DNA from: Escherichia coli 042
Lineage (GTDB): Bacteria > Pseudomonadota > Gammaproteobacteria > Enterobacterales > Enterobacteriaceae
Length of the DNA: 64,000 bases
Reading direction: 5' to 3' (one strand)
Assembly: GCF_000027125.1 (NCBI RefSeq)
Contig: NC_017626.1
The translations under genes were made by a program, and so were the position numbers. The notes under the pieces are model-generated. The model was not told the DNA's origin and made no database searches. It saw nothing but the letters and a program-made list of their open reading frames with translations. The number at the start of each line of letters is the position of its first letter. Position 1 is the stretch's first letter. This document shows positions 8,384-42,376 of the stretch, piece by piece.

Positions 8384-8530
8384 ATGGCAAAGCCGATCAT
8401 CACGCTCAATGGCCTAAAAATCGTCATTATGTTGGGAATGCTGGTCATTATTCTCTGCGGTATCCGTTTTGCCGCCGAGATCATCGTGCCGTTTATTCTC
8501 GCATTATTTATTGCTGTTATATATAACTAA
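8384..8530 (+). pseudogene. tqsA: tqsA 5' fragment (codons 1–45) ending at the island junction
   Basis: Encodes [45 protein letters not shown] then IYN-stop from island DNA; remainder of tqsA resumes at 19546. Confidence 0.8.
8512..8520. repeat. attL core (TGCTGTTAT)
   Basis: Identical 9-mer at 19546..19554; lies at tqsA codons 44–46. Confidence 0.7.
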
Positions 8531-8591
8531 TTTCACTTAACGCATTGATTTAATTAAATGATTTGCACTACAAAAAGTGCCATAAATCGCA

Positions 8592-8650
8592 AAATGACTA
8601 CACCAGTGACTACACCGTTCGGTGCACTGTATGAAACAACGTGGAACAAA
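8592..8650. promoter_or_regulatory. arm-type repeat block (GACTACACC x2), homologous to block near attR
   Basis: atGACTACACCagtGACTACACCg plus shared flanking motifs, matching 19391..19460. Confidence 0.5.
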
Positions 8651-8929
8651 TAGACACAAGAAATATACAGGCGGGTCATCTTTCCAGGGGGAAGCGCGCT
8701 AATTCATGAGGGGCGTTAATGTTGATATGGGGATCCCCATAACGGGGCTACCGGATTTTTTTTCCGGTTAACTGTTAATCAGGCTGGTGGGCTTTACCTG
8801 TTTTGTAGGAGTGGTCATTATGACCATTCAGACAATGACCTTAATCAGAACTTTTCGCTAAAAAATGACGTTGGTCACGTCGTCCGGAAAGCACAAAATC
8901 CCGTCAATTTTTAATTAACGGTTAAACCG

Positions 8930-8990
8930 TCTTTTGTCACGGCGTGTCACTGGTTGTCACTCTCCGTCACGGTATGTCGCTACTCGTTAA
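8930..8990. repeat. helically phased TGTCAC/GTCAC array (about 5 copies)
   Basis: tgtcacggcgtgtcactggttgtcactctccgtcacggtatgtcgc, ~10–11 bp spacing; at 3' end of the leftmost island gene. Confidence 0.45.
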
Positions 8991-9268
8991 CGCCGTAACC
9001 GCTCCGGCTTCTTCCAGTGGTACGTAATTTTCTCCGTTTCCCGATACAGTGCCACGCGGCGATTGTAGGCCAGCATTTCAAGAACGCGGATCCGTATGTT
9101 GCGCATATCCACATCATTAAGCTGGATACCATCACGGCGCATCACCTCAGCAACCACACGCGCGTAATTTTCGGCGGTCACGCTGTCCGGCTGCGTGGCC
9201 TGTTCGTCATGCTGCTGGCTGATTCCGGTAACGCGGCGGATTAATCCCAGTAGTTCGGCTTCTGTCAT
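8987..9268 (-). CDS. hypothetical protein (93 aa)
   Basis: ORF 8987..9466 trimmed to Met MTEAELLG; upstream part of the track ORF is read-through of the cos repeat. Confidence 0.45.
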   Translation of the reverse strand: MTEAELLGLIRRVTGISQQHDEQATQPDSVTAENYARVVAEVMRRDGIQLNDVDMRNIRIRVLEMLAYNRRVALYRETEKITYHWKKPERLRR

Positions 9269-9301
9269 TGTGCCCCCATCGCTCTGATAGTCTGGTGTCG
9301 T

Positions 9302-9365
9302 CGGGTCCTTCCTGGAATTATGGCCCGTTACGGGGCGGCGACCTCGCGCGTTTTCACTATTTATG
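9302..9365 (+). other. lambda-type cos site, copy A (cosN GGGCGGCGACCT at 9333..9344)
   Basis: cgggtccttcc...gttacg|GGGCGGCGACCT|cgcgcgttttcactatttatgaaaattttt matches remembered lambda cosQ–cosN–left-end sequence. Confidence 0.75.
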
Positions 9366-9547
9366 AAAATTTTTCGGGATCCATGTCCGGTTTCTCTGCA
9401 AGTTAACCATATGAAAAATATAAAAACATGCTTTCCATGAACCGGACATGCGCAAAAAACAGACACTAAAACCGGACATCGAACCAGTTAACCGAAAGTG
9501 TGCACAAATCACATGCATTGCTGCGAGTGATTAACAAGTTATCGGCT

Positions 9548-9982
9548 TTACTGTTCTGTATCGGCTGATTGCTCCATGCTGGCACGGCGAACGCTTATGG
9601 CATGACGCCACCCAGCCAGAAAGCCAGCCATTTTATTTCGTGCCTTGCTCACATCTTCCGGTGAATAGCCGTAAATCTGCAAACCTTCATCAAATCGATG
9701 TTCTGTTTCTTCACTGGAGTACTCGTCACGCTCAGATGAAAGCAGCCTGGCAAACATAATTTTTTCCAGCGCACTGGTTTCTACGTGATATCTGATGGTC
9801 TCAAGACGGCTTTTACCTGAAGACCAAAGCAATGTATGCCCGATGTGATAACCGCCAGACTTTCCGCGATCCGCATTAAGATACGGCATCCCCTGTTTGG
9901 TCCATGCGCGAATAGTGGTTCTGTTAACCTTGAAATGTTCAGCTATTTCCTGCTGACTTACAAAACAAGCTTTATCAATCAT
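9548..9982 (-). CDS. Nu1-like small terminase homolog (N-terminal HTH); possible packaging-redirecting protein
   Basis: 144 aa; VSQQEIAEHFKVNRTTIRAWTKQGMP resembles lambda Nu1 VNKKQLADIFGASIRTIQNWQEQGMP; flanked by cos copies. Confidence 0.7.
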   Translation of the reverse strand: MIDKACFVSQQEIAEHFKVNRTTIRAWTKQGMPYLNADRGKSGGYHIGHTLLWSSGKSRLETIRYHVETSALEKIMFARLLSSERDEYSSEETEHRFDEGLQIYGYSPEDVSKARNKMAGFLAGWRHAISVRRASMEQSADTEQ

Positions 9983-10050
9983 AATGTTACCTTAACTGCA
10001 TGGTTAAATATTAATCAAGTGGTGGTGGTGTCACCTTCACGGAAAAACGT

Positions 10051-10114
10051 CATAAATAGCGAAAACCCGCGAGGTCGCCGCCCCGTAACGGGCCATAATT
10101 CCAGGAAGGACCCG
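10051..10114 (-). other. lambda-type cos site, copy B (cosN at 10072..10083), inverted relative to copy A
   Basis: Reverse complement is cgggtccttcctggaattatggcccgttacgGGGCGGCGACCTcgcgggttttcgctatttatg; ~90 bp upstream of the Nu1-like start. Confidence 0.75.
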
Positions 10115-10117
10115 TAA

Positions 10118-10138
10118 AAAAGCCGGATTTCTCCGGCC
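10118..10138 (-). terminator. rho-independent terminator after the 137-aa gene
   Basis: Minus strand gccggagaaatccggc followed by T-run; same hairpin recurs near 12390 and 12759. Confidence 0.6.
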
Positions 10139-10143
10139 TTGTC

Positions 10144-10557
10144 TCAGATGTTTTTCAGTATGCGATCGATGTCGCCGTCATCGCCCTGGTTTCTGCCATC
10201 GTATGCCATGCCAGCTGATACGGCTTGCGGGCTGTGCATGTCCATAAAGTTTTCAAAGGCTGCGGTAAGTTCCGGCGCAACCTTCGGACGTTCCTGCTCT
10301 ATGGTCATGCTAAGGATGCTTTTAGCCGTACCAACATCGATACAAGGCACGTTTGCCATTGCACGCAACAGCGGCTGATAGTCTTTATGCTCATGAAGCG
10401 CCATAATCGCATCAGCGCGCGGCTTGTCCTGCTCTTCCAGTTTGTTTAGTTGATGTACGGCCTCATAGGTTGATAAACCTCTGTCAGCCATTGCCCGCGC
10501 TTCGACTTTAAATTTACTCGCCAGCGGTAGCGTCATGATGCTTTCATTCGTTGCCAT
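10144..10557 (-). CDS. hypothetical protein (137 aa), last gene of capsid operon
   Basis: ORF; tightly packed after the gpD-like gene. Confidence 0.5.
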   Translation of the reverse strand: MATNESIMTLPLASKFKVEARAMADRGLSTYEAVHQLNKLEEQDKPRADAIMALHEHKDYQPLLRAMANVPCIDVGTAKSILSMTIEQERPKVAPELTAAFENFMDMHSPQAVSAGMAYDGRNQGDDGDIDRILKNI

Positions 10558-10569
10558 CGTTCCCCCTGC

Positions 10570-10905
10570 TTATCGGGCCAGCGGCTGAACGGATACGCCG
10601 GAACCCGCAAAGGCGGCGCATTTTTTCGCATCGGTGTCGACGCTCTCAGGCCAGTTAACGGCGGCAATATTGAATATCCCCGTCTTGTAACACTGTGCTG
10701 ATTTCTGCTTTGACGTGTCCACAGGGTACGAGGTCAGATAAACAGCCTTGCCAGATTCCTGACCATCCCACGGCTTAAACTCGCCATTGTCTGCCAGCAT
10801 CAGCGGGGTAAATTCCTGAATAACGCCAGCATCAGCGGCAAAATGTACCAACGTCGTGGATACCTGCTGACTGCCTGCAAATAACTCAATGTATGGAGTG
10901 TCCAT
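10570..10905 (-). CDS. head decoration protein, lambda gpD-like
   Basis: 111 aa; TPLMLADNGEFKPWDG...KTGIFNIAAVNWPESVDTDAKKCAAFAGSGVSVQ parallels lambda gpD (110 aa). Confidence 0.72.
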   Translation of the reverse strand: MDTPYIELFAGSQQVSTTLVHFAADAGVIQEFTPLMLADNGEFKPWDGQESGKAVYLTSYPVDTSKQKSAQCYKTGIFNIAAVNWPESVDTDAKKCAAFAGSGVSVQPLAR

Positions 10906-10917
10906 AGAATCCCCCCG

Positions 10918-11973
10918 TTAACCAATTTTGACGGTAACAAATTTGCGAATATCTGCCGGTACCGGCTGCGGTGCACTGTGTGTCTGCACGTACTCAATCG
11001 CCGGATCGCCGTCCTCAATCCAGTTTTTCGGGTAAAACATGTTTTGTGTTGCGCCCGTTCTTACCGCTTCCTGATCCATTATCGCACCATAGGCCACCAG
11101 CCCTTTATTGTTGGTGTTACCCAGGACCAGCAAATCAGGCTCAAGGAAATATTTTTCGGTACCATCGCTGTCAGTGTATTTGCCGGAATAGACGATAAGG
11201 GCCAGATCACCAAGATAGCCTTTAAAGCTCACCACTTCGCCCAGGTTTTTACAGGCCAGTTCGGCGGCGGATTCTGAACCACGGGAAAGATCGTACAGCT
11301 CACGGAATTTTTTAAAGCTGCGTAATGTGCGCCATACCTCAGCGCCCATAATCATGACGTTTGCGGGGCAACCAGCCTGATCAGCATAAAGCTCGATGTC
11401 ATAGATTGGGTCGTGCATGTCTTTATCCTGCTCGGACCATTTTTTACCCTTGGCCTGCTCTATGATGCAGTTTTCCGGTATTTTCCAGTCGATTTCATAG
11501 CGTTCTATGCCTTCGCCCTCAATGATGTTTTTTCCGGTCGTTACCGCATTCACCGCCAGCCATTCCACGCGTGCCTTAATGGCGTTTATCTGGCGGCGCA
11601 TGTTGCCAGTAATCAGGCGCATACGGCGATAGGTAGGGTCGTTAAGCTGTGCCGGATCTTCTCCAGCCATGCGCATGATGGTTTTCGTTGGATCGATTTC
11701 GTGCTTTGGCTTCATGTAGCCAGGTTTGATTGTGCTGGTTTCGTACCCTTTATCGCGCTGAACCTGGCTACCCACCATAGGCGAACAAAACGCCGACATG
11801 GTGACTTCTTCAATGTCCAGGGTATCCAGCATGATGTTTTGCGTGCTGAATGTCGCCACGTTCGGGAAAAACAGCGTGGTAAACAGAGGGCTGAATTTAA
11901 AATCCGCAATATCCCCGCGATTCAGGTACATGAAAAGCTGGTTAGTGTTAAGTGCCGTTGCTTTGCCTGCCAT
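10918..11973 (-). CDS. major capsid protein, lambda gpE family
   Basis: 351 aa (lambda gpE is 341 aa); adjacent to gpD-like gene. Confidence 0.75.
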   Translation of the reverse strand: MAGKATALNTNQLFMYLNRGDIADFKFSPLFTTLFFPNVATFSTQNIMLDTLDIEEVTMSAFCSPMVGSQVQRDKGYETSTIKPGYMKPKHEIDPTKTIMRMAGEDPAQLNDPTYRRMRLITGNMRRQINAIKARVEWLAVNAVTTGKNIIEGEGIERYEIDWKIPENCIIEQAKGKKWSEQDKDMHDPIYDIELYADQAGCPANVMIMGAEVWRTLRSFKKFRELYDLSRGSESAAELACKNLGEVVSFKGYLGDLALIVYSGKYTDSDGTEKYFLEPDLLVLGNTNNKGLVAYGAIMDQEAVRTGATQNMFYPKNWIEDGDPAIEYVQTHSAPQPVPADIRKFVTVKIG

Positions 11974-12212
11974 TATTCACCCCCATAATTTTTATGCATC
12001 CCAAGCGCCGCAAGTAAATAAGAGCGTACAAGTGAACCTATCGACGGCTCCGGCGTCATCAGCGGATCCAGTCCAGCCGCAACGCCAGCTTCATAGTTTT
12101 TTTTGTGGCGCTGCTTGAGCACCTCCACGATTTCGGGGCTTATGTACACCGAAACACCGCCTTTTTTCTCTTCAGCCATAGTAAGAAATTCCTCTTCGAC
12201 TAAAAAAATCAT
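11973..12212 (-). CDS. hypothetical protein (79 aa, or 68 aa from internal Met), first gene of capsid operon
   Basis: ORF; stop overlaps capsid start (ATGA). Confidence 0.45.
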   Translation of the reverse strand: MIFLVEEEFLTMAEEKKGGVSVYISPEIVEVLKQRHKKNYEAGVAAGLDPLMTPEPSIGSLVRSYLLAALGMHKNYGGE

Positions 12213-12235
12213 AACTGGATGTTTATCCAGTTATG
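12208..12235. promoter_or_regulatory. 12-bp inverted repeat (tcataactggat-gttt-atccagttatga) overlapping capsid-operon start codon
   Basis: Perfect 12-bp arms with 4-bp spacer; AT-rich region with further palindrome ttgcattttatgcaa just upstream. Confidence 0.5.
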
Positions 12236-12344
12236 ATTATAATCAGAATTGCATTTTATGCAATGATATTGAGTTATGTTGCAAATTATGAAATGATTAT
12301 CCCGATCACGAACGCCAGTGCATCCAAAAACCTCATATGCAAAA

Positions 12345-12410
12345 GCCCGATAAGAACCCTCTGACCTTATCGGGCTTTTTTTGGGCGCAAAAAAGCCGGA
12401 TTGCTCCGGC
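12345..12410. terminator. tandem hairpins (bidirectional terminator region, approximate)
   Basis: gcccgataag...cttatcgggc + T7, then aaaaaagccggattgctccggc. Confidence 0.55.
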
Positions 12411-12430
12411 TATGTGTGCTGTGTGCTGGC

Positions 12431-12655
12431 TCAGTCTCTGATCTCTTTCAGAAATTCTATCAATGCATCTATCTGTTCAGGATTTACCGCCAGCATTTCA
12501 CCGGATAGAGCACATCTCACAAAACCATGCTGATCCTTTTCAATCAGTGCGCCCGTCTCCAGGAATGCGCGGTAATCATTGATGCTCATCGTCTCCATGT
12601 TGTCAGCATGGTATTTATCACGCTGTTTTAATATCTCATCAAATTTCATCGGCAT
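12431..12655 (-). CDS. hypothetical protein (74 aa)
   Basis: ORF followed by terminator hairpin. Confidence 0.45.
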   Translation of the reverse strand: MPMKFDEILKQRDKYHADNMETMSINDYRAFLETGALIEKDQHGFVRCALSGEMLAVNPEQIDALIEFLKEIRD

Positions 12656-12758
12656 TGTTTTTTTCCTCTGTTGTGTCTGTTTGTTTCAGATAGTAACTAT
12701 GCCTGACCGTGACGAAAACCCGGTAATGCGCCATACCGTTTCAACTGGTGCAAAAAAA

Positions 12759-12774
12759 GCCGGATTTCTCCGGC
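12759..12774 (-). terminator. rho-independent terminator after PerC-like gene
   Basis: aaaaaaagccggatttctccggc. Confidence 0.6.
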
Positions 12775-12781
12775 TGTTTGA

Positions 12782-13054
12782 TTAGCTGTCCTGGTAATTG
12801 CGCCATATTTCATCACCAGCACCATCTATACCCATTTCGGCATAAGTGCGATCGACTGCCTTTTTCAGGTCTCCGAAATTATCCGGCGGCTCCGGTGCCC
12901 TCTGTGCCTTCCTTGAACATTCCAGCCGTCGCATCGTGATGTGATGCCGTTCCTTGTCTGTCTCCACCAGCTGCATGACTTCACCCCATCGCGCCGCCGC
13001 CCTCCGGTAAAAGCCTTTCGCCTCCAGTTCCTCCGCTATGCGGTCATGTACCAT
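12782..13054 (-). CDS. PerC-family transcriptional regulator-like protein
   Basis: ORF 12782..13174 trimmed to Met MVHDRIAEELEAKGFYRRAAARWGEVM, which resembles the PerC/Pch motif LExxGxWRRAAxRW. Confidence 0.55.
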   Translation of the reverse strand: MVHDRIAEELEAKGFYRRAAARWGEVMQLVETDKERHHITMRRLECSRKAQRAPEPPDNFGDLKKAVDRTYAEMGIDGAGDEIWRNYQDS

Positions 13055-13064
13055 CGTCACCCCC

Positions 13065-13475
13065 TCAGAACGAAATATCATCACCGTAAGGGTCATCGCC
13101 TCCCGCTGGTGGCTGATTACCCTGTGTGCCTGTGGTTTTGCGTCTGTTCCCGCCTGGACGTGCCGCGCGGGCACTGATTACGCTGTCTGCGATAACCTGC
13201 CAGCCCTGCCGCGTTTCTCCGTTCTGTCCGGTCCACTGGCTTACCTGCATCGTGCCGGATACGCTGGCAACATCGCCTTTTTGATGTTTAGCCAGGAAGT
13301 CGGCCTGTTTGCCAAATGCGATGACCGATAACCATAACGTCGCCTGTCCGTCCTGTGCCTGGCTGCATGGCAAAGATACCGCCATACGCGCCAGCGTCAT
13401 CGGTGTGCCCTTGCTGGTCTGTTTTACCTGCGGGTCGTCCACCAGCCGCCCGTAAGCGGCTATCTGTGCCGTCAT
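13065..13475 (-). CDS. ssb: single-stranded DNA-binding protein
   Basis: 136 aa; OB-fold segments parallel E. coli SSB; Gly/Pro-rich tail ending DDPYGDDISF (compare DFDDDIPF). Confidence 0.8.
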   Translation of the reverse strand: MTAQIAAYGRLVDDPQVKQTSKGTPMTLARMAVSLPCSQAQDGQATLWLSVIAFGKQADFLAKHQKGDVASVSGTMQVSQWTGQNGETRQGWQVIADSVISARAARPGGNRRKTTGTQGNQPPAGGDDPYGDDISF

Positions 13476-13753
13476 AATTCCACCTCTCCGGTTTTAACGT
13501 TGATGGTTGTTACCTGTTCCGCTTCGGCAATCTCCCGTTCTGTCAGCGTGGCAAAGTTTGCCGCCGCCGTGGTCATGAATGCGCTTATCAGGTCGGGATG
13601 TTCCTTCGCGTATCCTTCCCGCGTGTGGCGGTCTATCGTTCTGATTGCCACCTTTAAGGTGTGCTCAGTCATGTCTAACGCTTTATATTTTGGCTCTGTT
13701 CTGTCTCTGCGTTTTTGGGTCATTTCTCGCAACCTCTCACTTTTTCGCCTCAC
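13472..13753 (-). CDS. hypothetical protein (93 aa)
   Basis: ORF overlapping ssb start by 4 nt; 5' end overlaps iteron region. Confidence 0.4.
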   Translation of the reverse strand: MRRKSERLREMTQKRRDRTEPKYKALDMTEHTLKVAIRTIDRHTREGYAKEHPDLISAFMTTAAANFATLTEREIAEAEQVTTINVKTGEVEL

Positions 13754-13925
13754 TTTTTCAAGCGTCTCACTTCGTCGCAGTTGGGATTTTCGGTTTTTCT
13801 ATGTGTGTGTTTCATAAGTATTTTTTTACCCCTCACTTTTGAGGATGTATACAGGTCGAAAAGTGAGGGAGAGCGGGCTAATTTTGGCCCTCTTTCTATC
13901 CCCCTCGCTTTTGCTCCTCACTTTT
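13733..13925. repeat. candidate replication origin: CCTCACTTTT iterons (about 6 direct, 1 inverted) with AT-rich spacer
   Basis: Iterons at about 13733, 13748, 13764, 13829, 13859 (inverted), 13901, 13916; directly 3' of the replication ATPase gene. Confidence 0.6.
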
Positions 13926-15324
13926 ATAGCGGCGCTACATCATCCCCATCGATACGAATAACCCCATCTTTTTCCAGCTTGTACAGCCAGCGCCGGAAGT
14001 TTTTCATTTCATACCCCAGCTTTTTCATGTCATCACGTAACAGCGGGATCGTGCACTTGTCGCCGTTCTGTGTGCGTGAACGGATGCACCCCCATAGCGC
14101 GGTATGGTTTTCCGTCTTGTTCCCTGCCTCCTCGATGCGCTCCAGTTCAACAGGAGGGCGCGGATCATCCACCACCACCAGCGACGTGATTAATTCACCG
14201 TCAGCGTCGGTAAAAAGCTCCACCACGCGTAAGTCATATGCGGCTTCTTTGAGTTCCTCCGCGTCCTTCATTTTGGTGCATGAGATAACCAGCGCTTCGC
14301 TTCCTGCGTCCTCCCTGCGTATCCGGTATTCAGCATCCAGCGAAGCACGAAATGCACTGGAACCGCGCGCGCCTTTCGTCTCATCCTTGCCGGAATGGTG
14401 AACCACCAGCACCGTGGCCCCTGTGCGTCGTTTCAGTTCGTCACAACCACGGATAAACGCCCCCATATCACGGGAATCATTTTCATCATTCCCACCAAAG
14501 CAACGCGCCAGCGTATCCAGAATAATCATGCGTACAGGTTTACCCGTTTCCCGCTCCACCTGACGGGCAGCGATAACCATTTCATCAACATCAAGCGGGG
14601 CAGCCGGAAAGATGGGGCGGTTTACCAGATACAGATTTTTCACCTGCTCATCGTGCACAACCTCCCAGGCTTTTACACGACGCGGAACACCTATACCGCC
14701 TTCACCAACCACATAGAGAACCGCACCATGTGCAACCCTGCGGCCTCCCCACTGGCGACCAGTGGCAACATGGCACGCCCACGATCCAGCAAGGAATGAT
14801 TTATAGGACCCGCTAGCCCCGTATATGCTGCATAGCGATACCGCCGGAATAATCCCCTTAACCACGTAATCCAGTTGCGTGTCGTATCCGGTAGATCCAA
14901 CGCTCATCGGTAGCGTGGTTTTTCGCTGGTGTTTTTTTTCTTCCGCCGGCTCTTTCCCGCGCACCCGTTCCAGGTATTCGCGCCAGTTCTCCCGCATATG
15001 GCTGTGCATCCCTTCGGGGTAATAATTCGCATCAGTTACACCCGCCGCCGCCAGCTTGTGCGCAATGGCATTAATATTTGATGGCCTGATGTGGCCTGCC
15101 TTGTACAGCCGGACACAATAGCGCCCCTCGTCGATGATTCTCAGGTCTGCCAGTTCATCCAGTTGATCATCAGCCAGCACAACGGGAGGCACATTATCGC
15201 CAGCCAGTCGCCCGTCCTGTTCCTGCCACTGTTTCGCATGTGCCCAGGCATCACTACCCGCAAAAATAATGACTTCGGTCATCTTGTCGTAAGGCTGTTT
15301 TTTTAAGTTCGGTGCGCTTTTCAT
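13924..15324 (-). CDS. replication protein, RecA-fold ATPase / helicase-like (primase-replicase candidate)
   Basis: 466 aa; Walker A GASGSYKS, Walker B MIILDTLARCFGG, VLVVHHSGK motif typical of phage/plasmid RepA or DnaB-like ATPases. Confidence 0.75.
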   Translation of the reverse strand: MKSAPNLKKQPYDKMTEVIIFAGSDAWAHAKQWQEQDGRLAGDNVPPVVLADDQLDELADLRIIDEGRYCVRLYKAGHIRPSNINAIAHKLAAAGVTDANYYPEGMHSHMRENWREYLERVRGKEPAEEKKHQRKTTLPMSVGSTGYDTQLDYVVKGIIPAVSLCSIYGASGSYKSFLAGSWACHVATGRQWGGRRVAHGAVLYVVGEGGIGVPRRVKAWEVVHDEQVKNLYLVNRPIFPAAPLDVDEMVIAARQVERETGKPVRMIILDTLARCFGGNDENDSRDMGAFIRGCDELKRRTGATVLVVHHSGKDETKGARGSSAFRASLDAEYRIRREDAGSEALVISCTKMKDAEELKEAAYDLRVVELFTDADGELITSLVVVDDPRPPVELERIEEAGNKTENHTALWGCIRSRTQNGDKCTIPLLRDDMKKLGYEMKNFRRWLYKLEKDGVIRIDGDDVAPL

Positions 15325-15620
15325 TTCTTGCCCCTGAATCCGTTAACCATGGTTTTCAGCTTCTGGATGTTTGCCCGTGCCCTGGCGTTGCTGGTGGGCA
15401 CGTTATGCGGCGCGGTCTGTACCAGAGAAAAATCACGCCGGAACTGATAAACAGGCATCACGCAATCATATTCGTAACCTTCACGGCGGTAGGTTACGCG
15501 CCGTTCTTCCACGTCCTTAATCATTACCGTGCCGCCGTACTGGTCGCGGTAAATATCACCGCGCGTAAATTTAGGGTGAGTGTTGCCACTGGCAGTTAAG
15601 CCAGAATATTTAAGTTTCAT
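15321..15620 (-). CDS. hypothetical protein (99 aa)
   Basis: ORF overlapping rep start by 4 nt. Confidence 0.45.
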   Translation of the reverse strand: MKLKYSGLTASGNTHPKFTRGDIYRDQYGGTVMIKDVEERRVTYRREGYEYDCVMPVYQFRRDFSLVQTAPHNVPTSNARARANIQKLKTMVNGFRGKK

Positions 15621-15625
15621 TATTT

Positions 15626-15859
15626 TTATTCTCCGGTGTGCTGTTCTTTATATCTGTCGTGCAATAGATCTATTTCTTGCAGTTCCATTATTACAGGCTC
15701 AAGAAGCGTTATTAATGCTGTGGCAATTCTTGATTTTTGTTTGTCGCGTTCATTGTCGCCAAGTGTTTCAAGCCATATGCGCAATATTTCCATCATGTTT
15801 TCACTGTGAGAAAGTGCAAGAAATGCGCGGTCTATTGTTTGGTGGTAAATATCACGCAT
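15626..15859 (-). CDS. hypothetical protein (77 aa)
   Basis: ORF in operon context. Confidence 0.4.
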   Translation of the reverse strand: MRDIYHQTIDRAFLALSHSENMMEILRIWLETLGDNERDKQKSRIATALITLLEPVIMELQEIDLLHDRYKEQHTGE

Positions 15860-16319
15860 GGCTTACATCCTCAGGAAATTTTCTTCTATAACGCGCCTCT
15901 GCCACATATTCCGCATAATCGGCGGCGATATTCAGTACATCAAGCCCCGTTGATTTATATTCTCTCGTGGAAAGTAAGAAAAAAGCCGCTCTAATAAGTT
16001 CTGGCATTGACGAAAGCGCATCAGCCGCATCATCAGGAACGCCGGAAAATTCCTGTTTCAGGGAATTAAAACGATCATCACGCATAACCCCCCCCCCATT
16101 TTCACAATCAGCAATCAGGATAGCTTTGGCCTCATTCAGCGCCGTATCAGCACTAAATTGCATGACAGCCAGTGAGTGAGGAACGAAAGCACCGGCATAT
16201 TCTGTTTCGCTGGTGGCGTGCTTATGTGCCCTGTCCGCGATAACAGAAATATCAATCAGCGCGTGCATCAGCGTTTTGATGGCTTCGGCGGCTGCGTCCG
16301 GTGTGGTTTTATTGTGCAT
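15852..16319 (-). CDS. hypothetical protein (155 aa) containing a G10 homopolymer
   Basis: ORF; codons GGG-GGG-GGG at 16088..16097. Confidence 0.45.
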   Translation of the reverse strand: MHNKTTPDAAAEAIKTLMHALIDISVIADRAHKHATSETEYAGAFVPHSLAVMQFSADTALNEAKAILIADCENGGGVMRDDRFNSLKQEFSGVPDDAADALSSMPELIRAAFFLLSTREYKSTGLDVLNIAADYAEYVAEARYRRKFPEDVSHA

Positions 16320-16521
16320 AAAGCATCCCCTGAATATTCGTGTTAATCATTCCGGCACGTTTTGTGATTTCCTGTAATGATTCCCTTGTGGCGACAATTG
16401 CTTCATCTGGTAAGTGGTAATTACACACCACGCGACCTTTATCCACATTGACCAGTAGCTGCCCTGTGAATTTCTCACGAAACTGAATGCGGTTAAGGTC
16501 AGTAAGTGACAGATTAATCAT
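16309..16521 (-). CDS. hypothetical protein (about 70 aa from internal Met MINLSL)
   Basis: ORF 16309..16563 starts at GTG; ATG at 16521 is the likelier start. Confidence 0.4.
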   Translation of the reverse strand: MINLSLTDLNRIQFREKFTGQLLVNVDKGRVVCNYHLPDEAIVATRESLQEITKRAGMINTNIQGMLYAQ

Positions 16522-16711
16522 GGCGCACCTCCTGACGAATACGGGCGGCAAATACAGCAACACAACCGGACGGGCAACGGTTACGCGCTTCGCGTTCCGT
16601 CCAGGCGGTTACGTGGATGATTTGAGATTCTCCGGCACTCAGTGCCAGAAAACGCCACACAAAGGCCGTTTGTGTGTGTACAAGGTGTGGTATATGATTT
16701 ACAGCAACCAT
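16514..16711 (-). CDS. hypothetical small protein (about 65 aa), first gene leftward of regulatory region
   Basis: ORF 16514..16786 trimmed to Met MVAVNH. Confidence 0.3.
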   Translation of the reverse strand: MVAVNHIPHLVHTQTAFVWRFLALSAGESQIIHVTAWTEREARNRCPSGCVAVFAARIRQEVRHD

Positions 16712-16803
16712 AACGGCTCCTAGTTTACGTTGTTGGTTAGAAGCCCTGCGAGTGGTAACGACACTTGCGGGGCTTTGTCTTTTCATCGATTACCTTGATA
16801 AAG

Positions 16804-16884
16804 GTGTCAGCCACTATATTAGTAACGGGTGTCAGCCACGTCAATAGTGTTTTTCCGTTTTCTTGTGTGTATACTGTCAGCCAC
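16804..16884. promoter_or_regulatory. divergent regulatory region with three direct repeats GTCAGCCAC
   Basis: Repeats at 16806..16814, 16831..16839, 16876..16884; tatact box and aggaaa RBS precede the plus-strand small gene. Confidence 0.6.
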
Positions 16885-16905
16885 CTAATAACGAGGAAAT
16901 CAGAT

Positions 16906-17085
16906 ATGGCAACAAAAGCAGTTAATGCAAAATCCAAAAAGCTTGAGGCTCGAGTACCACACGCAATAGCTGATGCTGTAGAAAATTTAAAGGAAGATGG
17001 CGAAAGTACAGGGCAATTTATCGTTTCGGCACTTGAAGGCGAGATCAAACGCCGCCAGCGCCGCAAGGCCAAAGAATCAGAATAA
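16906..17085 (+). CDS. small ribbon-helix-helix-like DNA-binding protein (59 aa), candidate island regulator
   Basis: KKLEARVPHAIADAVENLKEDGESTGQFIVSALEGEI resembles Arc/CopG RHH; transcribed divergently from the leftward gene block. Confidence 0.5.
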   Translation: MATKAVNAKSKKLEARVPHAIADAVENLKEDGESTGQFIVSALEGEIKRRQRRKAKESE

Positions 17086-17127
17086 TCACTATCAGCGCCG
17101 TGGTGTGAGGTATTACGGCGCATTGCT

Positions 17128-17316
17128 ATGCAGGACAACACAATGACCGATAAAGAATTGACCAAAACATTATCACCGGCACGGAAAAGACGGCGCAGAA
17201 AGATAGAGCATGAATCAGAAAGATTCGCACCATGTGCTTTTGCCCTTGAGCAATTCCTTAAAGAGTACAGGGAAAAGCGCTCATTGCAGGTATGGCAACG
17301 AACTGAACCAGACTGA
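17128..17316 (+). CDS. hypothetical basic small protein (62 aa)
   Basis: ORF downstream of RHH gene; Arg/Lys-rich. Confidence 0.35.
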   Translation: MQDNTMTDKELTKTLSPARKRRRRKIEHESERFAPCAFALEQFLKEYREKRSLQVWQRTEPD

Positions 17317-17394
17317 TTGCATTGCCCACCAGCCTGATAGCGGCTATCATCCCCGTGCTTATGTTTGGGATCACACACACAAACGGCGCAGCGG

Positions 17395-17430
17395 GTTATC
17401 TGTTCAGAAAGGCGGCTCCATTTCGGGGCC
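17395..17430 (+). terminator. candidate terminator of the plus-strand pair (approximate)
   Basis: ggcggctccatttcggggccgc followed by tttttta. Confidence 0.45.
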
Positions 17431-17585
17431 GCTTTTTTTATACCTGAAAAACCCCAATTTTGTTGTTTTTCAGTTTCACCAGGGCGAACGAATCCCCGCC
17501 CACGTTCTGGCGTATATTCAATCTTCATGGTTATAGCTCTGTGTTCAGATGATTGATGTGTGGCGGCTGCGTGCCGCCAGCGTGA

Positions 17586-17774
17586 TTAATGAACTGCCTT
17601 GCAGCTATCCTTCCAGGCCAGAACCTCGGATAAAGACCAGCCAACGGAACGACCGCCAAGTTTACGACGTGATGGGAATTGTCCGGCCTTTTCCAGGCGG
17701 TAGCGACACGTACGGCTAAGGCCGGTTAGTTTTTCGCATTCTTTTTCACGTATAAACCGATCAGTGCTTAACAC
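17586..17774 (-). CDS. alpA: AlpA-family phage transcriptional regulator / excisionase-like
   Basis: 62 aa; LTGLSRTCRYRLEKAGQFPSRRKLGGRSVGWSLSEVLAW matches AlpA HTH pattern. Confidence 0.8.
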   Translation of the reverse strand: MLSTDRFIREKECEKLTGLSRTCRYRLEKAGQFPSRRKLGGRSVGWSLSEVLAWKDSCKAVH

Positions 17775-18140
17775 TATTGCCCCCCCTTTCGTTTCTTAAA
17801 GAGTCATCAGGTGTCTTATTGTGTCGTATTGTTCCCGCTAGAGTGATGAATGGCAAATATTGAGGATGTATGATTTACAGAAAATGAAACAGTAAGAATA
17901 AAATCTTTTAAATTCATGTTAATACAAAGGCATAAAATATTGTTTCATGCCTTTTTTCTCGCTCTTTAAAGAGTGATTCGCTAGTGTATAAAAAACCAGT
18001 GACACATTAAAAATCAGCCACTTATAAATCTGTATGCTTTTTCGCCTCTTGTTCGTGGTTGTTCCACATTGTTGCTCATTGTTGCACGTTGTATCTGTTC
18101 GCATATACAGTATGCGCATACTGAAAAAACACGAAAAAAA

Positions 18141-19370
18141 TTATTTTCTTCTGGCTACTGGTAGCGTGGTTACGTTTTCATGTGTTCCCGCCAGTATCCC
18201 TAACCGCTCCGTCCACATATCCAGCGCATTGCGTTTAGCATCCAGATAACGGGAATGATTATAAACTCGCTGCATTCCTGGCATCTGGTGGCCTGTAAGC
18301 TGCTCCACGACATGCGGATCAACGCCTAAATCGTTCAGCATGGTTGTAAAGGTGCGCCGGATGTCATGCAGTGACCAGTGAGGATGATTAAGCCTCCTGT
18401 GCGCTAATCTTCCATACTGCGATACGCTGGCCTCCTGTTTCACTTCCCCCAGCAATAAGCCCGTGTGCCTGTTCTGCTCCACCAGCTGCGTGACGAACGG
18501 CAGGATCGCTTCCGGTATGGGCCGGAATATTGCGACCTTCGTTTTGCTGTGCTCCTTCGGAACGGTCCATAGCATTTCCGTAAAATCCCACTCCCCGATC
18601 TCCGATAACCTCAGTTCTACCGTTCTGGCTCCGAAGACAATCAGGAGGCGGATTAACGCGACGTAGTAAGGGGAGAATATTTTTTTGTCCAGTGCCTGCA
18701 ATAATTCGCCAAGTTCTTTGTTACTTAAGACACGTTCGCTTATATCCGGTTTTTTCCCAACGTCCGCCACGTTCAGATCGTCCAGAACGTTGCTGATTGC
18801 ATAGCGCCGCCTACGGCAGAACTTAAGCGCCTGTTTGCACGCCTGTAGCACGAATCCGGCAGTAACAGGCGTTCGCTTTGCCACCTGGTCAAAACAGGCC
18901 AGCCAGTGCCGTAGCTCGCATTTATCCAGCGGCATAGCACCAATCTGCTGTATTACGTGATTATTAAGTCGCCTTTTCAGGGCGATATAATCCACGCGGT
19001 TTTCCTTTACGTAATACTCAAGCCAGTAGGTGAGCGCATCGCCAACCGTTACCGGCTTTAACGCTTCCTGTACGGTGTAATTAAGCTCATGACGTGGATT
19101 TTTCCCCTCTGCCAGCCATGCGCGACACTGGGCGGCTTTTTCCCTGGCTGATTTCAGGCTCAGATCAGGATAACTTCCCAGCTTAATGCGTTCGGGTCGT
19201 GTCTCCCTTCCCGTTCCGGCCCTGTATGTGAAATACCAGGTCAATTTCCCTGATGTTAAATATTTCACGCTCAGGTTTCCGCCATCACTATAAAACGTGT
19301 TTTTCTCCGCTGGCTTACCATGAAGTTTCCTTAGCAAGGTATCGCTCAGTTTGTTCATTGCTCTGCTCAC
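18141..19370 (-). CDS. int: tyrosine site-specific integrase (P4-like, N-terminal arm-binding domain)
   Basis: 409 aa; C-terminal HDIRRT...GHQ...VYNHSRY catalytic motifs; adjacent to attR. Confidence 0.9.
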   Translation of the reverse strand: MSRAMNKLSDTLLRKLHGKPAEKNTFYSDGGNLSVKYLTSGKLTWYFTYRAGTGRETRPERIKLGSYPDLSLKSAREKAAQCRAWLAEGKNPRHELNYTVQEALKPVTVGDALTYWLEYYVKENRVDYIALKRRLNNHVIQQIGAMPLDKCELRHWLACFDQVAKRTPVTAGFVLQACKQALKFCRRRRYAISNVLDDLNVADVGKKPDISERVLSNKELGELLQALDKKIFSPYYVALIRLLIVFGARTVELRLSEIGEWDFTEMLWTVPKEHSKTKVAIFRPIPEAILPFVTQLVEQNRHTGLLLGEVKQEASVSQYGRLAHRRLNHPHWSLHDIRRTFTTMLNDLGVDPHVVEQLTGHQMPGMQRVYNHSRYLDAKRNALDMWTERLGILAGTHENVTTLPVARRK

Positions 19371-19390
19371 GTTTTACCCCCTCTTTACGA

Positions 19391-19460
19391 AAAAGTGACT
19401 ACACCAGTGACTACACCGATCGTTGCACAAAGGGCTACAACGTGAAACAAGCTGGAACAA
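19391..19460. promoter_or_regulatory. arm-type repeat block (GACTACACC x2) between int start and attR
   Basis: gtGACTACACCagtGACTACACCg at 19397..19417, homologous to 8592..8650. Confidence 0.5.
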
Positions 19461-19545
19461 GGAAAATCACAAATCTGTTGATAATCAAAAACATAATGCA
19501 CAGCCTGAAACATTATGAAACAGCAAAAAACACCAAATGATAAAA

Positions 19546-19554
19546 TGCTGTTAT
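19546..19554. repeat. attR core (TGCTGTTAT)
   Basis: Identical to 8512..8520; in-frame stops TGA TAA immediately upstream. Confidence 0.7.
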
Positions 19555-20452
19555 TCTTAACCCGCTGGTGCAACACATGGTCCGCTGGCGAGTGCCGCGT
19601 GTACTGGCGGTGTCGATTTTGATGACCATCATCGTGATGGCGATGGTGTTGCTGTTAGCTTATCTGGGTTCCGCGCTCAACGAGTTGACGCGGACGTTAC
19701 CGCAATATCGCAACTCTATTATGACGCCGCTGCAAGCGATTGAACCGTTGTTGCAACGCGTAGGGATTGATGTCTCAGTTGACCAACTGGCGCATTACAT
19801 TGATCCGAACGCGGCGATGACGTTGCTCACCAACTTATTGACGCAGTTATCTAATGCCATGTCATCAATATTTTTATTGCTGCTGACGGTGCTGTTTATG
19901 CTGCTCGAAGTGCCACAATTGCCCGGAAAATTTCAGCAAATGATGGCGCGTCCGGTTGAAGGGATGGCGGCGATTCAGCGTGCGATTGACAGTGTTTCTC
20001 ATTATCTGGTGCTGAAAACAGCCATCAGCATCATCACCGGCCTGGTCGCCTGGGCGATGCTCGCCGCACTCGATGTTCGCTTCGCTTTTGTCTGGGGATT
20101 GCTGGCCTTTGCGCTTAATTACATCCCTAATATTGGTTCAGTTCTCGCAGCAATTCCCCCTATCGCTCAGGTACTGGTGTTTAATGGCTTCTACGAAGCG
20201 TTGTTGGTGCTGGCGGGATATCTGCTGATTAATCTGGTCTTCGGCAATATTCTGGAGCCGCGCATCATGGGACGTGGGCTGGGGCTTTCGACATTGGTGG
20301 TATTTTTGTCGTTGATTTTTTGGGGATGGTTGTTAGGACCGGTGGGTATGCTGCTTTCCGTGCCGTTGACAATTATTGTCAAAATTGCGCTTGAACAAAC
20401 AGCGGGAGGTCAAAGCATCGCCGTTCTGTTAAGCGATCTCAATAAAGAGTGA
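19546..20452 (+). pseudogene. tqsA: tqsA 3' portion (codons 44–344), separated from its start and promoter by the island
   Basis: In-frame continuation [14 protein letters not shown]...; track ORF 19568..20452 begins at an internal GTG. Confidence 0.8.
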
Positions 20453-41785: not shown

Positions 41786-42376
41786 TCAGGATGCGGTTAA
41801 GATACCGCCAATCATCGCGCGTAATCCCTGAGCAAACGACGCTTCACGCGCCAGATCTTCCGCTTCGATATCGGCCAGTACACCGTAGGTCAGATCCAGC
41901 AGTAAACGTGAAGTCATTGCCGTGTTGATGTCTGGGCTTATCTCGCCTTTTTGCTGGGCATCACGCATCCGCTGGGCAACAAATTCCGTGATCGTCATAT
42001 GCTTATTTTTAAGCATGGCGGCGACCTGTGGGTTACGCATCCCTTCCGCCATAATTTCGACCACCAGCGCCCGTTGTCCAAAGGCTTCATGGGTGAGAGA
42101 GACAATAGACTTGACCATATAGTCAACGAAATGAATCCCTTCAATCGGTTCCCGGAAACGGGCCAGCGCCCTCTCCTGGTCCTGTAAGATAATCGCCTGA
42201 ATCAGGGCTTCTTTGGAGATGAAATGGTGATAGAGCGTCCCGGGACTAATGGCGCAAGATTTACAGATGGCTTTCATCGAGGCACTGTGAAATCCATTTT
42301 CTGAAAAAATCTCTCTGGCAGCATTGAGGATCCGGGTCCGTGTCGGTTGTGCTTCAGTCTGCATGTTATCCATCAT
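41786..42376 (-). CDS. uidR: TetR-family repressor of the uid operon
   Basis: 196 aa; TetR HTH. Confidence 0.92.
   Translation of the reverse strand: MMDNMQTEAQPTRTRILNAAREIFSENGFHSASMKAICKSCAISPGTLYHHFISKEALIQAIILQDQERALARFREPIEGIHFVDYMVKSIVSLTHEAFGQRALVVEIMAEGMRNPQVAAMLKNKHMTITEFVAQRMRDAQQKGEISPDINTAMTSRLLLDLTYGVLADIEAEDLAREASFAQGLRAMIGGILTAS

Follow-up and report, generated by a model that had tools for sequence, protein, structure and literature searches.

A phage-type second cos site and natural inversion of the cos1–rppA–cos2 packaging cassette in EcCICFT073-family islands of Escherichia coli

The 64,000-nucleotide stretch of Escherichia coli 042 DNA analyzed here (contig NC_017626.1; hereafter, the window) carries a phage-inducible chromosomal island (PICI) in which two lambda-type cos sites face each other across a small gene with a helix-turn-helix (HTH) motif. 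The cos pair and the gene are the already published cos1–rppA–cos2 packaging module of EcCICFT073, the corresponding island of the CFT073 genome, and the pair itself is thus a rediscovery that adds nothing alone. Judged by its sequence, cos2 is a near-exact copy of the cosN-cosB segment of a natural lambdoid phage of the PhiR12 type, which encodes a small terminase (TerS) of 169 amino acids (aa). We also found that the cassette occurs in both orientations in nature, and this inversion polymorphism is previously unreported. The explanation we favor, and consider reasonably probable, is that the two sites provide two helper specificities, that they are placed in opposition around rppA, and that inversion arises as a by-product.

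The cos copies lie on the arms of an inverted repeat (Table 1). A preliminary description, made from the letters of the DNA, had pointed to a 64-bp repeat with two mismatches. Direct comparison gave the same two mismatches over the first 64 nt, with 47 nt perfectly identical, and an inverted-repeat search extended the arms to 78 nt (91% complementary, 657 nt between them). In both arms the alignment with the lambda cos junction covers cosQ (GGGTCC..), cosN, and roughly 35 nt of left-end sequence, which upholds the lambda-like flanks assigned to each arm and supplies the lambda alignment proposed as a check; GGGTCC..CC lies 30 nt upstream of cosN in both arms, the spacing of lambda. The cohesive-end sequence GGGCGGCGACCT is exact in each arm. 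A search of the 64-kb window that allowed one mismatch gave three matches against 0.31 expected; the third, TGGCGGCGACCT at 42016-42027, differs by one mismatch, is distant from the island, and is probably a chance match. The cosB sides of both copies face inward, toward each other, as had been described. Beyond about 35 nt inside cosN, the inner flanks of copy A and copy B are unrelated to each other and to lambda, and the two copies therefore have different cosB regions. The cosN of copy B ends 89 nt before the rppA ATG, which is bp 102 from the cohesive end, so the order of cos and then HTH gene at a distance of about 90 bp stands. Copy A lies 203 nt past the rppA stop codon on the opposite strand. 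Its position and orientation are those of the inverted duplicate that had been suggested, but it is no plain duplicate, as its cosB is unrelated to that of copy B.

The arrangement had not been recognized among cos satellites, but it is sequence-identical to cos1 and cos2 of EcCICFT073 (Fillol-Salom et al. 2018, ISME J, PMC6092414, and 2019, Mol Cell, PMC6739421): from cosN inward, copy B equals cos1 and copy A equals cos2 of the CFT073 genome, in which two cosN sites converge around a 435-nt rppA gene. The two islands share identical cosN and cosB sequences at both sites, the ATG at bp 102, the convergent geometry, and the neighboring genes for the 93-aa, 137-aa, decoration, and capsid proteins, and the window RppA shares 98.6% of its residues with the CFT073 protein. 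Murialdo & Feiss 2022 (PMC9026076) described this layout of cos and rpp, in which the start codon falls at bp 102. Unlike the window island, which resides in tqsA and encodes a 466-aa helicase/primase, EcCICFT073 is inserted between phoQ and roxA and has a 584-aa primase gene. The cosQ sides of its arms differ, leaving a 25-bp perfect core, whereas those in the window are identical, extending the core to 47 bp. The cosQ side of the CFT073 cos1 (locus L004) resembles phage PhiR5_1. The lineage with the flipped cassette (see below) is like the window in that both cosQ sides are identical, with a 47-bp core; on sequence comparison, the identical cosQ sides in the window and in that lineage suggest gene conversion between the arms.

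EcCICFT073 has been investigated experimentally. Two cosN sequences were reported, the sequences of both cos sites were printed in Figure S5, each cos was cloned in a plasmid, and single and double deletions were made (PMC6092414). Each cloned site mobilizes a plasmid (PMC6092414 Fig. 4 and S5; PMC6739421 Fig. 6). Deleting cos1 lowered transfer by lambda and phi80, deleting cos2 raised it, and only the double deletion abolished it (PMC6092414). A heterodimer of RppA and the helper TerS recognizes cos1 and recruits the helper large terminase (TerL) to cut cosN, and cosB swaps showed that RppA-TerS acts via the cosB of cos1, not via that of cos2 (PMC6739421). cos2 is functional when cloned, receives no help from RppA, and is dispensable with lambda and phi80 (PMC6092414, PMC6739421). 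These data agree with the earlier proposal that packaging may start from either site, and the plasmid-transfer and deletion results on identical sequences suggest that terminase would cleave at both sites of the window. The reason for two cos sites was left open by the original authors (PMC6739421). Their comparison with lambda, phi80, and CFT073 phage 4 found no phage cosB in the island. Neither PMC6092414 nor PMC6739421 discusses orientation, inversion, or a phage source of cos2, and the word 'orientation' is absent from both, although the convergent geometry follows from the sequences they contain. Among open-access papers and bioRxiv, we found nothing that deals with the PhiR12 phages or with how PICI cos sites are oriented or inverted.

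In the current phage collection, copy A matches PhiR12_1 to PhiR12_5 (accessions PV340549, PV340550, PV340551, PV340553, and PV340554) over cosQ, cosN, and cosB, and in these phages the matching cos lies directly upstream of Nu1 and A. From cosN through the third R-like repeat, cos2 of the window is identical at 143/147 positions to PhiR12_1 and to one prophage, and at 135/147 to a second prophage. The identity is 25-29/45 in the 45 nt upstream of cosN and 7-13/60 in the 60 nt past the last R repeat; the phage homology begins at cosN and stops after the third R repeat. The copied part thus comprises cosN and the whole cosB, with its three R repeats and their spacers. These repeats, of 8 nt each, one opposed to the other two, are kept in phage and prophage copies whose spacers vary. 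Unlike the site in the island, the phage cos has the phage's own terS and terL after it, whereas in the island the next gene, rppA, is oppositely directed and the cosQ side is island-specific. Of 5426 complete E. coli genomes, 222 have the cos2-type cosB, about 82 of them in islands and about 140 outside a PICI, as a prophage cos directly upstream of the genes for the 169-aa TerS and TerL; the 141-bp cosB of cos2 is at least 99% identical in 72 genomes. The resemblance of the 169-aa TerS to lambda Nu1 is confined to the C-terminal half, and the protein therefore has a different DNA-binding domain. A co-occurrence query made of rppA and the first 330 nt of the phage terS had a second match in 40 of the 60 listed island genomes, where the background is about 21%. 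However, about 1,140 genomes match the terS fragment, a number well above that of genomes with the matching cosB, and lineage was uncontrolled; we do not rely on this figure.

As for cos1, its phage matches end about 50 nt past cosN, and no phage counterpart of its cosB was found in the phage collection. R-type repeats are not evident in the cos1 cosB, in agreement with the published account. Its lambda-like cosQ and cosN, non-phage cosB, and position about 100 bp upstream of rpp are those of a PICI cos site.

We classified the cassettes in RefSeq and IMG/VR loci and found five cosB types, always in a convergent pair. rppA cassettes join an island-specific cosB at the gene start (A1) to a second cosB of the PhiR12 or X type. 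terS cassettes, which encode a 180-aa full-length Nu1 homologue, join another island-specific gene-start cosB (T1) to a 21-like or CAGATCC-type second cosB. A gene-less cassette of 536 bp, left with a 22-aa rpp remnant, has no gene-start cosB and carries an X-type and a PhiR12-type site. Orientation was scored with a synthetic query in which the window flanks were kept and positions 9302-10114 reversed, with the 93-aa gene as left flank and the 137-aa gene as right flank. In complete E. coli genomes, 15 of the 82 rppA-type cassettes are inverted (98% coverage in one piece) and 67 are native; the annotation of the inverted genomes puts rppA opposite in strand to the capsid genes. One inverted sequence, once un-flipped, matched native islands of other strains at 100.0% over 2813 nt. 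Between an inverted and a native island, the 813-bp segment is 100% identical in reverse between collinear flanks, and the 1 kb searched on each side is also 100% identical. Among terS-type cassettes, 5 of 494 are inverted and 489 native, the inverted ones belonging to two distinct islands, integrated in tqsA and at a tRNA-Pro gene, respectively. The 536-bp cassettes in IMG/VR, which stand in islands of the same family, split evenly: four with the X-type cosB on the side of the 93-aa gene and four reversed (L034, L036, L037, and L051 versus L040, L045, L046, and L053), and a 542-bp variant with X-type cosB on the 93-aa side makes the split 5:4 overall. Both 536-bp orientations were found in islands sharing one divergent integrase type. 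No rpp or terS was seen elsewhere on the contigs, of up to about 10 kb, that carry these gene-less cassettes. The perfectly shared core of the arms measures 24-47 bp and spans cosN in every case. At least four independent inversions have occurred, with all breakpoints in this short core around cosN.

The cassette is thus invertible, as had been surmised, with both orientations in independent complete genomes; nothing points to a dedicated invertase or to rapid switching. Inverted repeats are able to confuse assemblers, and an assembly artefact in the inverted copy, or in the flipped state elsewhere, had to be considered. We judge it practically negligible: the arms, at 78 nt, are below ordinary read length and the flipped state is identical in 15 assemblies from many laboratories, both of which make an artefact unlikely; moreover, the structure is present in more than 500 complete genomes, and in CFT073 the two sites of the same structure were cloned and deleted experimentally (PMC6092414).

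The occurrence of both orientations in several lineages would also be expected of a programmed switch, that is, a regulated inversion that alters expression of rpp or of the 93-aa gene, or the packaging direction, in the manner of phase variation; indeed, the flipped rpp is no longer directed toward the 93-aa gene. Such a switch appears improbable to us. No invertase gene is nearby: PHROG and NCBIfam searches gave no recombinase match for rppA or for the neighboring 93-aa and 137-aa genes, the only ones within or next to the cassette. The island integrase lies 8 kb from the cassette. No inverted group mixes orientations, the 15 inverted rppA-type genomes all representing one island variant, and the inverted state is in the minority (18% and 1%). 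With promoter-like sites of its own and a terminator-like hairpin before it, the cassette should also work either way. Hin, Gin, and Cin systems and the fim switch likewise consist of a short segment bounded by inverted repeats and found in both orientations. In contrast to these, the cassette lacks a dedicated recombinase and is bounded by repeats that are themselves functional cos sites; its flipped state seems to be rare and to be passed on stably, and there is no evident switch of expression.

The second cosB types differ in their relation to phages. The X-type cosB of PICIs is identical at 146/149 positions, from cosN on, to the cos of phage contigs of 42-50 kb. The 21-like cosB shares the R3 block of phage 21 and is 68% identical to it overall. 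The CAGATCC-type cosB, the second site of O157/O55 islands, has lambda architecture, and the phage collection gave only 72-76% partial matches for it. Its matches in E. coli genomes, taken uninspected, are nearly all at least 99% identical, consistent with PICI copies, and its four exact IMG/VR matches are all on island-sized contigs of 2-15 kb. All seven IMG/VR cassettes of the type found in the window keep the PhiR12-type cosB. Different second cosB types accompany island TerS proteins that are about 95% identical and have one and the same recognition helix, while the gene-start cos is conserved; it is therefore unlikely that the second cosB is the cognate site of the island protein. We rejected binding of the second cosB by island TerS or Rpp for this reason and, for Rpp, also because of the published cosB swaps, in which RppA acted on the cos1 cosB only (PMC6739421).

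Among phage-sized IMG/VR contigs (45-51 kb), L064, L076, L080, L082, and L103 carry the X-type cosB with GGTTGTTGT-type repeats, followed by genes for a TerS and a TerL, the former with 48% identity to the island TerS and the latter with 66% identity to lambda gpA; by sequence, these phages are likely a further helper family for the islands. On the phage contigs L071, L073, and L095, the X-type cosB is accompanied by another sequence at the place of GGGCGGCGACCT, and it may there be joined to another cosN. One end of L079 (36.7 kb) bears an X-type phage cos (around position 55), accompanied by terS and terL; 13 kb from this cos, at 12800-13640, are an island-like terS (80% identical) and a 93-aa gene (77% identical). 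The contig may be a chimera or a satellite embedded in a helper.

In the explanation we favor, the second cos would permit direct packaging by the unmodified terminase of a second helper family and thereby widen the helper range: cos1 would serve RppA-TerS with lambda, phi80, and 21, and cos2 would serve the PhiR12-type TerS directly. Initiation of packaging requires cosN with a matching cosB, whereas termination requires cosQ, cosN, and I2 and is indifferent to the cosB type (PMC4669245). Since termination ignores the cosB type, two sites in direct orientation would terminate on each other, deleting or duplicating the intervening cassette, and the sites would consequently have to be inverted. 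Opposed orientation would avoid mutual termination, provided that an inverted cos is not cut by the translocating terminase. The inverted arms would occasionally recombine at or around cosN and flip a self-contained cassette. This could happen by break-stimulated RecA or Red recombination in the core of 24-47 bp, or by terminase cutting at both sites, after which the fragment with two 5'-GGGCGGCGACCT overhangs would religate either way. With the hairpin before cos1 and the promoter-like sites in the spacer, the cassette looks self-contained and either orientation should work; inversion is therefore probably a neutral by-product.

The sharp boundary between phage and island sequence at cosN, seen in cos2 and the X-type sites, would fit cosB capture by cohesive-end joining, which could operate exactly at cosN because all these elements share the 12-nt cohesive ends. 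A more far-reaching version would regard the element as a modular, naturally invertible packaging-specificity cassette, in which cosB modules are captured from helpers by joining at cosN and flips and swaps are centered on cosN, giving the island two helper specificities and a means of gaining new ones. We put this forward tentatively, as a possibility with somewhat less than even chances.

Several points weigh against the two-helper explanation. It depends on an inverted cos being ignored by the translocating terminase, a notion from the older lambda literature. Mobilization of the islands via cos2 by PhiR12-type phages is predicted from sequence, and RppA, if it binds the PhiR12-type TerS, may block the use of cos2. 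That the second cos is a phage cos is supported, by the comparisons above, for two types and in part for a third; for the fourth, the CAGATCC type, the collections searched gave no close phage or prophage counterpart, and the resemblance of the 21-like cosB to phage 21 amounts to a mere 68% overall. Some family members have a single cos (EcCIDi14 and L003). Finally, since deletion of cos2 raises transfer by lambda and phi80 (PMC6092414), cos2 can be a cost with these helpers.

The latter two points are also what one would expect if cos2 were a functionless relic of past phage recombination at cos, kept because it is harmless, with the inversions equally meaningless: cos2 deletion does not reduce but increases lambda and phi80 transfer (PMC6092414), a second cos is absent from some relatives (L003), and one second-site cosB type has no phage match. 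We nevertheless find a relic unlikely. The three R repeats and their spacing are intact in a cosB that is so uniform among genomes, the PhiR12-type cosB persists in each of the seven IMG/VR cassettes, and transfer is lost only when both sites are deleted (PMC6092414). Furthermore, a convergent second cos is present in every cassette type examined, with at least four cosB types, which suggests repeated acquisition or retention rather than one accident. The preliminary description had also raised the possibility of a decoy, in which a phage-type cos on a multicopy replicon would titrate helper terminase and add to interference. The copying of a phage cosB in cos2 and the known interference of PICIs with helper packaging (PMC6739421) would suit this idea, but a terminase able to bind and cut cos2 would go on to package island DNA, and the outcome would be transfer, not mere titration. 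The published interference maps to Rpp (PMC6739421, PMC9026076), and nothing ties cos2 to interference; the decoy finds no support and has, in our view, very little chance of being correct.

Table 1. Features of the packaging cassette and of the island that carries it (window coordinates).
Feature	Position	Strand	Evidence or remark
Whole satellite, EcCICFT073-family PICI, ~11.0 kb, in tqsA	8520..19555	-	ORF list, synteny with CFT073
tqsA, N-terminal part and remainder	8384-8530; 19568-20452		ORF list
Conserved 93-aa gene flanking cos2	8987..9268	-	PHROG 1561, E = 1e-56, family function unknown
Arm A, conserved part of cos2: cosQ-like GGGTCCTTCC (9303-9312), cosN, lambda left-end-like bases	9302..9379	+	Identical to published 'CFT073 cos.2' and to CFT073 genome
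cosN of cos2, 12-nt GGGCGGCGACCT; packaging would proceed rightwards	9333..9344	+	Sequence match
cosB of cos2, phage type, three R-like repeats	9345..9479	+	Identity to PhiR12_1 and prophage cos
R-like repeat of cos2, ATGTCCGG	9383-9390		
R-like repeats of cos2, CCGGACAT	9442-9449; 9472-9479		
rppA (redirecting phage packaging protein), 144 aa, winged-HTH N-terminus	9548..9982	-	phmmer, Nu1 alignment
cosB of cos1, PICI-specific	9983..10071	-	Identical to published 'CFT073 cos.1'
Promoter-like sites in cos1-rppA spacer	10034-10007; 10007-9978	-	Consensus scan, weak evidence
R3-PICI proposed by Murialdo & Feiss, bp 48-65 of cos1, AGGTGACACCACCACCAC	10036-10019	-	PMC9026076
cosN of cos1, GGGCGGCGACCT; packaging would proceed leftwards, through rppA	10072..10083	-	Sequence match
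Arm B, conserved part of cos1: cosQ-like (10104-10113), cosN, lambda left-end-like bases	10037..10114	-	
G+C-rich hairpin, then T run, directly after 137-aa gene and before cos1	10118..10140	-	RNA fold
Conserved 137-aa gene flanking cos1	10144..10557	-	PHROG 1999, E = 1e-65; PHROG 53, E = 6e-9, residues 47-119
Tyrosine recombinase (integrase) open reading frame (ORF), 409 aa	18141-19370	-	At one end of the island, which has the size (~10-12 kb) and site-specific integration of this PICI type

The gene between the two sites had been described as a Nu1-like small terminase gene (Table 1). The HTH and the Nu1-like N-terminus stand, the first 64 residues being 30% identical to lambda Nu1, but the protein is not a complete small terminase: the C-terminal half of Nu1 is absent, the match to the small terminase family PHROG 57 is restricted to the N-terminus, and the best description is RppA, with a phmmer E value of 4.5e-31 to RppC (PDB 6HLK) over residues 2-125. 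A length of 144 aa lies within the published range of 135-154 for Rpp proteins, and a TerS-like winged HTH without the TerL-binding C-terminus is what defines them. In the spacer between cos1 and rppA (10007-10036, minus strand), the Rpp-binding site that Murialdo & Feiss proposed and the -35-like GTGACA of a promoter-like site overlap; given this overlap, putative Rpp binding at cos1 could also influence rpp transcription. The hairpin upstream of cos1 has a 9-bp stem, a GGCCGGAGA/UCCGGCUUU-type helix followed by UUUUUU, and a minimum free energy of -19.5 kcal/mol (z = -2.4). A consensus terminator scan did not list it; it is probably the terminator of the capsid operon, which would make the cassette transcriptionally independent. 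As for the flanking genes, the 137-aa protein resembles, in PHROG, the C-terminal, scaffold-like end of head-maturation proteases. An NCBIfam search with the 93-aa and 137-aa proteins gave no match, and PHROGs gave families without known function.

The island is a further copy of a known kind of PICI at another integration site, where it interrupts tqsA. On the minus strand, its genes run from int through an HTH regulator, an Icd-like gene, DUF4222, a helicase/primase, and SSB to the virion-type genes (capsid, decoration, and the 137-aa gene), followed by the packaging cassette and the 93-aa gene, which is also the gene order of CFT073. PHROG matches and the annotation of a locus in strain 300033 (L001), 99.8% identical to the window island, back this gene content. 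An AlpA-type regulator and a replication module of its own are assigned from annotation and synteny alone: the L001 annotation lists an HTH regulator, a DNA primase family protein, DUF4222, and SSB, and the replication gene of the window is a 466-aa RepA-type helicase ORF. Induction by helper phages, excision, replication, and high-frequency transfer have been established experimentally for EcCICFT073 (PMC6092414, PMC6739421). A 23-nt direct repeat, TGACTACACCAGTGACTACACCG, lies near both island ends (8595-8617 and 19396-19418), and GTCAC-containing repeats cluster near the left end (8940-8975); these may be integrase arm-type sites or iterons. The region 10144-11973 encodes a lambda E-like major capsid protein, a D-like decoration protein, and the 137-aa protein, and CFT073 has the same genes. 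The island thus carries capsid-type genes, yet EcCICFT073 was said to be without capsid morphogenesis genes and to be packaged in phage-sized capsids (PMC6092414).

Packaging by mimicry of the helper's cos is known from P4 with P2 and from SaPIbov5 and SaPIbov4, and SaPIbov4 has been cited as another satellite with two putative cos sites (PMC6092414). Unlike in these satellites, the present cassettes combine a mimic site with one that requires a satellite protein (Rpp or the island TerS), and the two sites are inverted and flank the gene of that protein. As a copy of the cos of a specific natural phage, cos2 points to a candidate second helper family, and helper range governs the spread of these islands. 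This and the other islands that combine different cosB types in the same opposed layout make the question of the two cos sites testable at the bench. The inversion polymorphism indicates that functional cos sites can serve as recombination points in the evolution of satellites. If true, the modular, invertible specificity cassette would answer why some PICIs carry two different cos sites.

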